Shown one piece after another: positions 2,475 through 33,705 of a stretch of DNA of 33,814 nucleotides. Location of the stretch: the NCBI GenBank assembly GCA_014763835.1, contig JACXUQ010000001.1, positions 1 to 33,814 on the forward strand, written 5' to 3'. The position numbers and the translations under genes are program-made. The notes beneath the pieces are model-generated. The model worked only from the letters and a program-made list of their open reading frames with translations, was not told the DNA's origin and searched no databases. Source of the stretch: Thiotrichales bacterium (GTDB lineage: Bacteria; Pseudomonadota; Gammaproteobacteria; Thiomicrospirales; Thiomicrospiraceae). Every line of letters starts with the position of its first letter. Positions within the stretch are counted from its first letter, which is position 1.

Positions 2475-2505
2475 AACAGGCCTGGTTTTCAGGCCTGTTT
2501 TTTTT
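2475..2505 (+). terminator. Intrinsic terminator built from an inverted pair of the AACAGGCC motif
   Basis: AACAGGCCTG-GTTTT-CAGGCCTGTT followed by a T run. Confidence 0.75.
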
Positions 2506-2545
2506 CACAAGGCTGATGCCTACCGGGGGATTGTTTGGAGTTTTC

Positions 2546-3358
2546 ATGCAAGCCGAGACGCTGATTGATATACAGGATTTAAGTTTTGCCCGTGGTTCGC
2601 GCATGATTTTTGATCGCTTGAGTCTGGCGATACCCAAAGGCAAGGTGACGGCCATCATGGGGCCGAGCGGTACCGGCAAGACGACGCTGTTGAAGCTGAT
2701 TGCCGGACAGTTAAAGCCGGATGCGGGCCGTATTCTGGTTGAGGGGGAAGATGTACACCGCCTCAAGCGCGACAAGCTTTATGCGTTGCGGCAAAAAATG
2801 GGGATGCTGTTTCAAAGTGGCGCCTTGTTAACCGATTTGAACGTCTTTGACAATGTGGCATTTCCTCTGCGCGAGCATACTGACTTACCTGAATCGATTA
2901 TCTATCCGCTGGTGTTGATGAAGTTGCAGGCGGTGGGCTTGCAGGGCGCGCGTTATCTGATGCCGTCTGAGCTTTCCGGCGGCATGTCGCGGCGTGTGGC
3001 ACTGGCGCGCGGTATTGCCCTTGATCCGGAAATGATTTTTTATGACGAGCCGTTTGTCGGTCAGGACCCGATTACCATGGGGGTGCTGGTGGAACTGATT
3101 CGTAAGCTGAACGATAGTTTGGGGTTGACGAGTGTGGTGGTTTCGCATGACGTCGATGAGGTGCTCTCGATTGCCGATTATGTCTGTGTGCTTTCCGAAG
3201 GTCGCGTGATTGCACAGGGTACCAAGGAAGAGGTGCTTAACAGTCAGTCGGCTTATGTGGAGCAGTTTATCAAAGGGTTGCCGGACGGGCCTGTGCCGTT
3301 CCATTACACTGACGAAACTTACGAGCAAGCGATGCGTGCGGGCGAGGTAAGGTTATGA
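2546..3358 (+). CDS. mlaF: Mla phospholipid ABC transporter ATPase
   Basis: Walker A GPSGTGKT, LSGGM, YDEP, C-terminal PDGPVPFHY. ATG at 2546 after GGAG. Confidence 0.93.
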   Translation: MQAETLIDIQDLSFARGSRMIFDRLSLAIPKGKVTAIMGPSGTGKTTLLKLIAGQLKPDAGRILVEGEDVHRLKRDKLYALRQKMGMLFQSGALLTDLNVFDNVAFPLREHTDLPESIIYPLVLMKLQAVGLQGARYLMPSELSGGMSRRVALARGIALDPEMIFYDEPFVGQDPITMGVLVELIRKLNDSLGLTSVVVSHDVDEVLSIADYVCVLSEGRVIAQGTKEEVLNSQSAYVEQFIKGLPDGPVPFHYTDETYEQAMRAGEVRL

Positions 3359-4140
3359 ATTGGATGATAGCTAAGATAGAGGTGTTGGGCGAGCGTGCCT
3401 TGGCGCTTTTTGCCGGGTTGGGGCGCATGGCCTTTTTTGTGGCCGGCCTTCTGCCGGCACTGCCTTATGCCTTTGTGCGCTTTGAACTGCTGGTCAAACA
3501 GCTTTATGTGGCGGCTGTTTTGTCATTGCCGATTATTCTGACCGCCGGTCTGTTTGTGGGCATGGTGTTGAGTTTGCAAGGGTATAATGTCCTGGTGGAT
3601 TACAACTCGGAAGAGGCGGTGGGTACCATGACGGCGTTGTCGTTGTTGCGTGAGTTGGGACCCGTGGTCGCTGCGTTGCTGTTTGCCGGGCGCGCCGGTT
3701 CGGCGCTGACGGCGGAGATCGGTCTGATGCGCTCCACCGAGCAGCTTTCCGCTTTGGAAATGATGGCGGTTGATCCGCGCAAGTTTATTTTTGCGCCGCG
3801 TTTTGTGGCGGCGTTTATCGCTTTGCCGATGTTGTCGTTGCTGTTTATCGCTATGGGTATTCTGGGCGGTTATATGGTTGGCGTCGGCTGGCTCGGTATT
3901 GACGAAGGCGCCTTCTGGTCGCAGATGCAGGATTCGGTTGATTGGCAGGAAGACGTGATGAACGGGGTTATCAAATCCATCGCTTTTGCTGCCTTGATTG
4001 CCGTGATTGCGCTGTTCCAAGGCGAGGATGCGATGCCGACGTCTGAAGGCGTGAGTAATGCGACTACCCGCACGGTGGTGCATTCGTCTTTAGGTGTATT
4101 AGGTTTGGATTTTGTGTTGACCACATTGATGTTTAGTTAA
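3355..4140 (+). CDS. mlaE: Mla permease
   Basis: LLRELGPVVAALLFAGRAGSALTAEIGLM and EQLSALEMMAVDP signatures. Confidence 0.95.
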   Translation: MNWMIAKIEVLGERALALFAGLGRMAFFVAGLLPALPYAFVRFELLVKQLYVAAVLSLPIILTAGLFVGMVLSLQGYNVLVDYNSEEAVGTMTALSLLRELGPVVAALLFAGRAGSALTAEIGLMRSTEQLSALEMMAVDPRKFIFAPRFVAAFIALPMLSLLFIAMGILGGYMVGVGWLGIDEGAFWSQMQDSVDWQEDVMNGVIKSIAFAALIAVIALFQGEDAMPTSEGVSNATTRTVVHSSLGVLGLDFVLTTLMFS

Positions 4141-4152
4141 AGAGGAAATGGC

Positions 4153-4614
4153 ATGAAGCGGCAGCTAAAAGTGGAGATTTGGGTTGGGGCCTTTGTGCTG
4201 ATGACACTGGTGTCCTTGGTAGTGATTGCTTTTCAGGTGAGTAATTTCAATAGCTGGAAAGAGAAACCGAGTTATCAGATTACCGGGCTTTTCAGCAATA
4301 TCGGTGGGTTGAAAGTGCGCGCGCCGGTGAAGGTCAGCGGTGTGGTGGTAGGGCGTGTTACCGACATCAGTGTCGATAAAAAAACCTACCAGGCCAGGGT
4401 CACGATGAGTGTGTTCAAGGAGTTTAGCGATCTGCCGATTGACACCTCAGGATCGATTCTGACCTCCGGTTTATTGGGGGATCAGTATATCGGTTTGGTG
4501 CCGGGTTCCGAAGAGACGTTTCTCAAAGAAGGTGATCAGCTGGATTTGACGCAGCCAGCGTTGGTGCTGGAAGACTTGATCGGTCAGTTTTTGGTCAAAT
4601 TTAGCGAAAAATAA
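4153..4614 (+). CDS. mlaD: Mla MCE-domain protein
   Basis: N-terminal TM, FSNIGGLKVRAPVKVSGVVVGRV, TSGLLGDQYIGL, LEDLIGQFL. Confidence 0.95.
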   Translation: MKRQLKVEIWVGAFVLMTLVSLVVIAFQVSNFNSWKEKPSYQITGLFSNIGGLKVRAPVKVSGVVVGRVTDISVDKKTYQARVTMSVFKEFSDLPIDTSGSILTSGLLGDQYIGLVPGSEETFLKEGDQLDLTQPALVLEDLIGQFLVKFSEK

Positions 4615-4625
4615 AGGGTAGAGTC

Positions 4626-5273
4626 ATGTTGGTTTTACGCAAAAATAGCTTTAATGCCTTTTGGGGTGTGTTCGTCGCATTTTTATTAGGGTTGGCAACC
4701 AGTGCGCATGCTGCGGAGATTGCACAGGATGATCCCGAAAAAATGGTATTGCAGTTGTCCGAAACCGTGGTGAAGGCTTTGAATGAGCAGCGTGCCGAAT
4801 TGGAAGGCAATCCGGCCAAGATTAAAGCGTTTGCCAATGAATATGTGTTGCCCTATGTGGATACGCCCAAAATGGCGCGCTATGTGATGGGGCGTTATTG
4901 GCGCATGACGTCGGAAGCGCAGCAGCAAGCGTTTATTGACGAGTTTACCACGACTTTGCTGCGCTCCTATTCGCAAAGCCTTTTGAAACTGAATATCAAT
5001 AGTGTCGCGGTGCAGCCGATGGTGGAGGAGAAACCGGGACGGGTCACGATCTCTTCGGAAGTCACCCAGGCGGATGGCAATAAAAGCAATGTGGTCTACC
5101 GCGCCTATTTGGATGACAAAAGTAAGAAATGGATGGTTTACGATGTGATGGTTGAGGGTATCAGTATGCTGCTTAACTACCGTAAAACCTACGATTCGGA
5201 GTTTGCCAAAATCGGTGTGGACGCGGTGATCTCTTCCATGAAAGAGAAAAATAAAGAGTTTAACGGCGTATGA
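4626..5273 (+). CDS. mlaC: Periplasmic phospholipid-binding protein
   Basis: Signal peptide, MARYVMGRYW, WMVYDVMVEGISML, operon position. Confidence 0.92.
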   Translation: MLVLRKNSFNAFWGVFVAFLLGLATSAHAAEIAQDDPEKMVLQLSETVVKALNEQRAELEGNPAKIKAFANEYVLPYVDTPKMARYVMGRYWRMTSEAQQQAFIDEFTTTLLRSYSQSLLKLNINSVAVQPMVEEKPGRVTISSEVTQADGNKSNVVYRAYLDDKSKKWMVYDVMVEGISMLLNYRKTYDSEFAKIGVDAVISSMKEKNKEFNGV

Positions 5274-32650: not shown

Positions 32651-32696
32651 ACTAACCTCTCTGATTTGATGGATATAGTGTTTCGCTTAGCTTAAA

Positions 32697-32711
32697 ACAC
32701 TTAATGTGCCA
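32697..32711 (-). promoter_or_regulatory. Putative sigma54 promoter of glnK-amtB
   Basis: Minus strand TGGCAC-ATTAA-GTGT: perfect -24 element, imperfect -12 element. Confidence 0.5.
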
Positions 32712-32797
32712 AATCTTTTAAATGCCTATTAAAATCAATTAGATGTGATGTTTTTGATTGGTTTTTATTGTTTTTTTATTGCTTTGTGATTTAAGTT

Positions 32798-32835
32798 TGA
32801 AACTAAATGGTGCTTCTTTGCTTTATGGTGGTGCA
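32798..32835. promoter_or_regulatory. Two putative NtrC binding sites
   Basis: TGAAACTAAATGGTGCT (32798-32814) and TGCTTTATGGTGGTGCA (32819-32835) compared with the consensus TGCACCA-N3-TGGTGCA. Centres are 21 bp apart. Confidence 0.6.
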
Positions 32836-32852
32836 GATTGTTTGAGGGTGGT

Positions 32853-33647
32853 GTGGGTAAACTGTTTCGGGCCTTGTTGCTGCAGTTTGTGGCATTGAGC
32901 GTTTTGGCGATAGCTGTCTATCTGCTGCGCCATGTGTTCACGCCGCCTTATTCCGTCTGGGTATTGGTGCTGATGCAAGCGGGCTTGGCGGCGGCGCTGA
33001 GTTGGCGCCTGCCGGTGTGGTGGCGTTGGATCCAGTTTTTACTGCCGCTTGGGTTGTATGGCGCCTCGTTGTTGCAGGTCAATCCCTGGCTCAGTCTGTT
33101 AATTTTTGTATTGCTCTGGCTGGTGTTTGCGAATGTCAATAAGGAGCGGGTACCGTTGTATTTGACCAACTCGGTGACACGGCAGGCTTTAAAAGTGTTG
33201 GCTGAAGAGCGGTTCGGGCAGCAGGGTGTGCAACAGCGCTTTGTTGATTTAGGCTGCGGCTTGGCTGGCAATGTTGTTTATATGAGTCGATTGCCCCAAA
33301 TTGAGCACTCCCTGGGGGTGGAAACCGCGCCTTTGCCCTATTTTATTTCGCGTTTGCATGTGTGGTGGCGCGGCGGTGAGGTCCGTGCTCAGGATTTATG
33401 GAAGACCGATTTGAGCGGGTTTGATGTGGTCTACGCCTTTTTGTCGCCGGAACCGATGCCTAAACTGTGGCATAAAGTGCAGCAGGAGATGCGTGCGGGA
33501 AGTGTCTTTGTCAGCAATAGTTTTGCAGTACCCGGCGTGGAACCGTCGCAGGTGTGGGAGCTAAGCGATCGTCGTCAGACGCGTTTGTATCTCTATGAAA
33601 TAACCACATCCTCTATGTCTTTACCCGAAAAGCGGGTAGCAGACTAA
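32853..33647 (+). CDS. Membrane-anchored class I SAM-dependent methyltransferase
   Basis: Three to four N-terminal hydrophobic segments, VDLGCG motif I, GVE, DLWK, DVVYAFLSP. GTG at 32853 after GAGG; the ORF is open from 32838. Confidence 0.85.
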   Translation: MGKLFRALLLQFVALSVLAIAVYLLRHVFTPPYSVWVLVLMQAGLAAALSWRLPVWWRWIQFLLPLGLYGASLLQVNPWLSLLIFVLLWLVFANVNKERVPLYLTNSVTRQALKVLAEERFGQQGVQQRFVDLGCGLAGNVVYMSRLPQIEHSLGVETAPLPYFISRLHVWWRGGEVRAQDLWKTDLSGFDVVYAFLSPEPMPKLWHKVQQEMRAGSVFVSNSFAVPGVEPSQVWELSDRRQTRLYLYEITTSSMSLPEKRVAD

Positions 33648-33683
33648 GCTTGTTCTCCGGTGTTGCCGGAAAATTGCGGCGAG

Positions 33684-33705
33684 AAAACTCAACAGGCCGG
33701 GTAGG
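33684..33705 (+). repeat. Copy of the dispersed motif
   Basis: AAAACTCAACAGGCCGGGTAGG, 21/22 identical to 21859-21880. Confidence 0.9.

Follow-up and report, generated by a model that had tools for sequence, protein, structure and literature searches.

A 33,814-nucleotide contig of a Thiotrichales bacterium of the family Thiomicrospiraceae (GenBank JACXUQ010000001.1, positions 1 to 33,814 of the forward strand; referred to as the window) contains repeated copies of a 12-nucleotide word, AACAGGCCGGGT, and raises the question of what this word is and how it came to be dispersed. An earlier note, based on the letters of the window, had proposed a self-DNA uptake signal unrelated to the DNA uptake sequence (DUS) of Neisseriaceae and the uptake signal sequence (USS) of Pasteurellaceae, and had named as alternatives a site for a nucleoid-organising protein and a short unit of the repetitive extragenic palindromic (REP) type. 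AACAGGCCGGGT is the core of a dispersed, oriented chromosomal site, for which a role as a DNA-uptake signal for own-kind DNA is the most likely explanation and the one to which we incline.

The assembly to which the window belongs, as contig C198, measures 2.07 Mb in 521 contigs and is 92% complete. The RadA protein encoded in the window is most similar to entries assigned to Thiomicrorhabdus, Hydrogenovibrio, Thiomicrospira and Thiosulfatimonas. We designate the genomes of our sample by G-numbers; 99 of them belong to the Thiomicrospiraceae, the genome holding the window being G000 and its sister G024. AACAGGCCGGGT was the top 12-mer of G000, with 380 exact copies as opposed to 3.5 expected from an order-5 Markov model, far beyond the handful that would have spoken against the note. 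The copies lay on both strands (188 on + and 192 on −) and on 241 of the 521 contigs, as expected of a site that is not confined to a single domain. Copies with one mismatch, summed over all 36 variants, numbered only 191. The sister genome contained 482 exact copies and was the one genome out of 40 sampled relatives in which the exact word was abundant. Within the window, 16 matches with up to two mismatches were found against 2.6 expected, a number reached in none of 100 shuffles.

Among the one-mismatch variants of G000, positions C3–C8 and G10 were nearly invariant. The core is preceded by AAAACT(C/G), and the 19-nucleotide consensus that the note had recognised in four copies of the window is indeed matched by them at 18–19 of the 19 positions. 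On the 3′ side of the core, the G000 copies showed zero conservation or information; the word is not embedded in a longer repeat. Upstream of the core, and on this side only, AT and GC alternate every ~11–12 nucleotides. In 160 single intergenic copies, the AT fraction was 0.24–0.27 at positions −13/−14, 0.84–0.86 at −18 to −20, 0.30–0.35 at −24/−25 and 0.65–0.70 at −28 to −30. The 122 coding copies had the same phased AT tracts, as had 54 copies of G024, and the pattern was missing at 2,242 control AAAAC sites. The core itself is strictly mixed, in that the G000 sites combine the half-sites AACAGG and ACCCGG (380 sites), with only 2 and 0 sites having the symmetric combinations. In the USS, too, AT segments flank the core on one side, spaced 12 positions from each other (PMC1626085), and the shape of these segments influences uptake (PMC7811141).

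We then located the copies with respect to genes, which were called in G000 with our own hexamer caller (2,065 genes, 85% coding). The 380 copies comprised 248 intergenic ones, 122 within coding regions (32%; 34.5% for the DUS of N. meningitidis, PMC2817400) and 10 across a gene end. After protein-preserving synonymous shuffling (20 runs), 1.55 coding copies were obtained as opposed to the 122 observed. The coding copies were biased in frame, 66 of the 122 being read in the (Q/E)QAG frame; QQAG was encountered 83 times, compared with 8 for the reversed GAQQ. Among the 571 G000 sites with no more than one mismatch, 65 close pairs were found, to which 98 intergenic copies belong; 52 of the pairs are in the head-to-head (+/−) arrangement, mostly 20–40 nucleotides 3′ of a stop codon. 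The pair following ffh in the window, overlooked by a simple terminator scan, was assessed by RNA folding instead and gave −29.4 kcal/mol (z −3.6). The head-to-head pairs are predicted intrinsic terminators, resembling the dyads formed by DUS and USS. In G000, convergent spacers had the highest site density (5.2 per kb), followed by tandem (0.89) and divergent ones (0.31), and the orientation within tandem spacers was 47:51. These values point to a site that acts at the level of DNA rather than to an operator.

The copies were scarce in conserved and in foreign DNA. Among 351 G000 genes having an orthologue among the sampled loci, those at least 75% identical to relatives had 0.03 copies per kb, as compared with 0.16–0.17 in the others. 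Low-GC contigs of G000, some of which may be bin contamination, had 0.05 copies per kb versus 0.28–0.33 in typical contigs. A 41-kb segment of G024 covering a prophage had zero exact copies (P about 4e-4), and viral contigs gave three single matches without enrichment. Foreign composition, likely due to contamination, was seen in the G000 contigs C433 and C124 (26–28% GC) and C101 (62.5% GC), and C76 is plasmid-like in appearance.

The family-wide comparison places AACAGGCCGGGT in a larger system. The palindrome CAGGCCTG was present in 236–1,193 copies in 44 of the 99 family genomes and in no more than 96 copies in each of the other 55. Its flanks are lineage-specific (ACC/GGT, AGC/GCT or AAC/GTT), all with an A tract; the flanks of the palindromic sites are mirrored and the A tracts lie on both sides. 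In a tree of seven markers and 67 genomes (its root lies on a long branch, and two genomes were dropped for having too few columns), G000 and G024 were nested, with support of 1.0, within a palindrome-bearing clade, which indicates that the one-way word derives from the palindrome. AACAGGCCGGGT is a symmetry-broken dialect of CAGGCCTG, in which T9 has changed to G.

Several of the palindrome-poor genomes have other words, all in the same register, bearing out the expectation of lineage-specific variants in related genomes: RCCAGGYTGGGK in G055, G056 and G062 (319–398 copies), RCCAGGCDGGGK in G065, GCCAGGGGTGGK in G063 and G072, RCCAGGGGGGGK in G067 and G068, and AGCAGGGGGGGG in G093 (410 matches) and, more weakly, in G089 and G012. 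The oriented dialects, found in 11 genomes including G000, have at least three independent origins on the tree, and every one of them keeps the A tract and the left half (AAAA..RVCAGG), with the right half altered and G-rich. G086 has a shortened symmetric palindrome, ACCGGCCGGT, in 1,025 copies. Thus, 56 of the 99 genomes are motif-rich (44 with the palindrome, 11 with oriented words, and G086), and the family uses at least eight spellings. A generalised pattern matched 371 times in G000, and the maximum among 398 other sampled Gammaproteobacteria was 17. De novo word counts revealed zero dialect in 154 kb of G003 and 126 kb of G022; for most other motif-poor genomes the counts covered only 3–30 kb, so that hidden dialects are possible there. 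G023 and G112, with 95 and 96 palindromes beside motif-rich relatives, may have lost the reader recently.

Individual sites can be followed from one form to another. When the coding sites of G000 were compared with their orthologues, 141 of 179 comparisons were gap-free. At the orthologous position, palindrome-rich genomes had CAGGCCTG in 18 of 80 comparisons, distributed over 8 of 24 sites, and palindrome-poor genomes in 0 of 61, the background being 0.06% per position; these comparisons are not mutually independent. One site in comEC, compared across 27 genomes, was palindromic in 23, had the G055-type spelling in 3 and read AACAGGCCGGGT in G000. Orthologous sites thus switch dialect by substitution, each being written in the spelling of its own lineage. 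Over comEC as a whole, the palindrome was in excess (73 copies versus 27 expected, 32 genomes), and we do not claim an enrichment because four conserved sites carry it and the gene ranks only second among 20 gene groups.

How does this system compare with those already known? On all the genomic tests run, the motif was DUS/USS-like, except for family-wide asymmetry and coupling with competence genes. AACAGGCCGGGT belongs to neither DUS nor USS, as the note had held from the sequence, even though its architecture is USS-like; in G000 it is not a highly iterated palindrome (HIP) either. Like the USS of Pasteurellaceae, of which there are Hin and Apl types, it has in G000 and G024 a GC-rich core with one-sided AT tracts about one turn apart, lacks orientation bias, forms putative dyad terminators, is biased in frame, differs between subclades, and is scarce in conserved and foreign genes. 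Unlike the USS, it is sparser, has a third AT tract, is unrelated in sequence and in bacterial family, is palindromic in 44 of 99 relatives, and accompanies a mannose-sensitive haemagglutinin (MSHA)-like pilus without a secretin of PilQ grade. The USS cores AAGTGCGGT and ACAAGCGGT did not rank with the top words of G000, in a count that did recover the USS in a Haemophilus locus. With the DUS, whose receptor is ComP, it shares the coding fraction of about one third and the strong excess of exact matches, as well as inverted terminator pairs and several dialects per family (PMC2817400, bioRxiv 2025.10.24.684340), whereas the DUS has no flanking tracts, is never palindromic and has a GCCGTCTGAA-type core unrelated to AACAGGCCGGGT. 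Both DUS and USS are non-palindromic (PMC2817400), and PpdA/ComN is the predicted USS receptor (PMC1626085, PMC2817400, PMC7811141, PMC12616744).

The note had argued that a non-palindromic word is not HIP1-like; this argument fails, as AACAGGCCGGGT derives from an iterated palindrome and sites switch between the two forms. The octamer of the relatives, CAGGCCTG, is also an alternative HIP of Synechococcus PCC 6312; in the relatives it has a density of ~0.1–0.6 per kb and is similarly kept at orthologous sites with patchy losses. HIP1 increases transformation in Synechococcus PCC 7002 (for HIP1 and the alternative HIPs, PMC5861425, PMC4390886, PMC13756078 and bioRxiv 2024.09.10.611283). The differences are that the G000 word is asymmetric, with the hyper-abundant palindrome residing in 44 relatives and G086, that no cognate methylase was found within three families searched, and that the present sites have long A-tract flanks and switch to oriented forms. 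Uptake sequences are stated to be known only in Pasteurellaceae and Neisseriaceae (PMC2817400, PMC1626085). We found no description of the motif in Thiomicrospiraceae, and no uptake or transformation results for this family, in the literature within our scope, which excluded surveys in subscription journals and bioRxiv supplements that may list the palindrome; the available part of the PMC5217627 supplements contained no report for this family.

The repeated one-sided breaking of symmetry and a lean in the orientation of palindromic sites in the sister clade (23:7) suggest that the site has an oriented reader. A reader that belongs to the uptake pathway and recognises sequence would prefer fragments with AAAA-nnn-RVCAGG and a G-rich right half, and mutation, biased uptake and homologous recombination would then fix those matching substitutions that are tolerated, as in the molecular-drive model for DUS and USS. 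Where the right half became the complement of the left, reading would be bidirectional and the site a palindrome; a change of specificity, here T9 to G, would make it one-way, and head-to-head pairs could subsequently be used as intrinsic terminators. More tentatively, and with considerable doubt, we consider that this may be a third independent uptake system, with a reader that is neither ComP nor PpdA and a signal that alternates between a palindrome of the HIP1 kind and words of the USS kind. In that case, a single phenomenon would underlie both highly iterated palindromes and uptake sequences, as two of its states. The joining of palindrome and oriented words into one switching system is the contribution of this analysis. 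The family bears on the link between HIPs and uptake signals; the coexistence of palindromic, oriented and motif-free relatives makes the link testable and offers many contrasts for finding the reader. If confirmed, the signal could also be put to practical use in the genetics of carbon-fixing sulfur oxidisers.

Several observations weigh against an uptake signal. The commonest form in the family is a palindrome with mirrored flanks, unlike DUS and USS, and palindromic sites overall have no built-in orientation (P=0.24), the sister clade being the only one with such a lean. The far phasing of AT tracts is weak or absent in the palindromic clades, outside the G000 lineage, and is not evident in 22 sites of the other oriented dialects. 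The density of exact copies in G000, 0.18 per kb, is below the ~1 per kb of DUS and USS, and a subset of G055 sites leans to one strand, as described below. Furthermore, the competence machinery does not track the motif, since motif-free relatives retain the same genes: comEC was matched in 92 of 98 scored genomes, motif-free ones included, and the motif-free G003 and G022 have comEA, dprA and pilT. PilT gave no match (E≤1e-100) in the palindrome-rich, single-contig genomes G073, G075, G101 and G102, and a secretin at the PilQ cut-off was found in none of five genomes. No receptor was found among the pilins examined, which are mostly acidic and none of which fits as the reader. An orphan pilin beside xerC was rejected as the reader because its distribution does not track the motif: close orthologues were present in just 12 of 98 genomes, including the motif-free G003 and G098, and no match was seen in the motif-rich G018 and G021. 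The first pilin cluster considered (20 genomes) proved to be type II secretion, and a search for ComP_DUS (PF16732) gave no match, nor did its controls. Thus, while the genomic predictions of the uptake reading held, a receptor and a covariation with competence genes did not emerge.

G000 itself encodes ComEA, DprA, PilT, PilU and, split over two contig pieces, ComEC, along with the greater part of an MSHA-like pilus operon, which is complete in G024. A protein identical to a G024 pilin is recorded under the name Thiomicrorhabdus cannonii. The last gene of this operon in G000, G024, G015, G003 and G022 is rmuC (L170:10940–12373); the G000 contig carrying it, C429, is 44.7% GC and has zero motif copies. 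In G024, a ~37-kb prophage with tail and baseplate genes and a Dam-like methylase lies inside comEC (contig 1, ~51,350–88,080), leaving a 592-aa N-terminal frame. Competence genes are known targets of disruption by mobile elements (PMC12378983), and this single insertion may be due to chance.

Because the genomic signatures also fit a binding site inside the cell, our preference for uptake is limited, and we regard the binding site as a possible, if clearly less probable, explanation. A chromosome-organising or repair-stimulating protein might bend or wrap ~45 bp, as a homodimer on palindromes and asymmetrically elsewhere, with selection retaining hundreds of sites. The mirrored flanks and two-sided A tracts of the palindromes suggest a dimer; the shortened palindrome of G086 is symmetric; the phased AT tracts are compatible with DNA bending; genomes that gave no PilT match can nevertheless be motif-rich, and motif abundance is independent of the presence of competence genes; and a structural role of HIP1 has been argued by Xu et al. 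(PMC5861425). A homodimer would, however, require a duplication at each of the three or more symmetry breaks, in all of which the same left half and flank were kept and the right half became G-rich, and the strictly mixed half-sites of G000 fit it poorly. Dialects at the level of species would also fit self-recognition better than a housekeeping binder. Sites of the matS or SlmA type number in the tens and either lie within a single macrodomain or avoid it; here there are hundreds, and a 98-site subset in G055 spans 0.07–2.41 Mb of the 2.45-Mb chromosome, which sets aside this version of the note's alternative. A methylation-directed repair ratchet at GGCC or CCWGG, as in Elhai's proposal for HIP, would account for the GGCC in the core and the two CCWGG sites of the palindromic form, and CAGGCCTG is an alternative HIP of the above Synechococcus strain. 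It is nevertheless very unlikely, as it leaves the 30-nucleotide one-sided flank unexplained, GGCC is wholly lost in the oriented dialects, and the methylase families searched were unmatched in many motif-rich genomes. Specifically, PF00145 had no match in G000, G024 and 27 of the 44 palindrome-rich genomes, and PF02086 was likewise unmatched in G000 and in 33 of these 44 (family-wide searches); PF01555 had none in G024 and G015 (five genomes searched). None of the three tracks the motif; type I and other methylases were not searched.

A polar signal for a translocating enzyme, like Chi or the FtsK-orienting polar sequences (KOPS), would agree with the G-richness of the oriented dialects and with the G055 subset, in which 61 of 98 sites (62%; P=0.02) were on the presumed leading strand when the origin was assumed to be at coordinate 1. 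In G000, by contrast, the 220 of the 380 copies whose contigs are 4 kb or longer and clearly skewed in GC were divided 110:110, and 57 of the 97 copies on contig 1 of G024 were on the + strand, which is C-rich there, with 40 on the other. There is no consistent replication polarity, let alone the strong leading-strand polarity of Chi and KOPS, as the note had anticipated, and the commonest form, being a palindrome, is incapable of polarity; we give this explanation hardly any weight, slightly less than the ratchet. Least probable of all is an origin as a short mobile or REP-like element, or as a plain terminator family. The prevalence of intergenic copies and the closely paired ones would suit it, but most copies are single, nothing 3′ of the core is conserved, the orientation in tandem spacers is even and the coding copies are constrained in frame. 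AACAGGCCGGGT is not an inserted extragenic unit of 20–40 or more nucleotides conserved end to end, as REP elements and miniature inverted-repeat transposable elements (MITEs) are, and the gap-free orthologous sites largely refute a mobile origin. An uptake signal remains our preferred interpretation.

Within the window, the copies listed in the earlier note were all confirmed in position and strand; its manual scan had overlooked one copy with one mismatch, at 30327–30338 (+). The five exact copies are at 11276–11287 (−), antisense in a Nif3-like gene (10905–11645); 14555–14566 (+), in the QQAG frame of radA (18/19 to the extended consensus); 15779–15790 (−), directly 3′ of the radA stop codon (19/19); 21866–21877 (+), in the 5′ arm of the hairpin, 31 nucleotides past the ffh stop; and 33691–33702 (+), in the intergenic region past the last gene (19/19). 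The 3′ arm of the predicted ffh terminator hairpin, followed by a U-rich tail, is formed by a one-mismatch copy at 21888–21899 (−). Another, at 2475–2486 (+), has the palindromic T at position 9; it lies in the spacer preceding mlaF, as the left arm of an inverted repeat. Further one-mismatch copies lie at 11355–11366 (+) in the Nif3-like gene and at 18462–18473 (+) and 19000–19011 (+) in a gene on the opposite strand (18030–19301, −), and a two-mismatch copy at 24372–24383 (+) is in xerD. The overlooked copy lies in a flagellin-like gene (29656–30444), which is short (262 aa) and solitary between valS and amt.

About ten copies of the G000 type were also seen in G042, a member of a motif-free genus, on contigs C23, C41, C69, C70, C84, C111, C157 and C226; many are near contig starts and likely reflect bin contamination or transfer. 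Finally, the ends of the window (1–29 and 33786–33814) belong to a different, near-palindromic repeat of ~150 nucleotides, found at more than 100 contig ends of G000. Two of its marker words have counts of 113 and 157, the majority at contig ends, and the repeat therefore breaks up the G000 assembly; it looks REP- or MITE-like.

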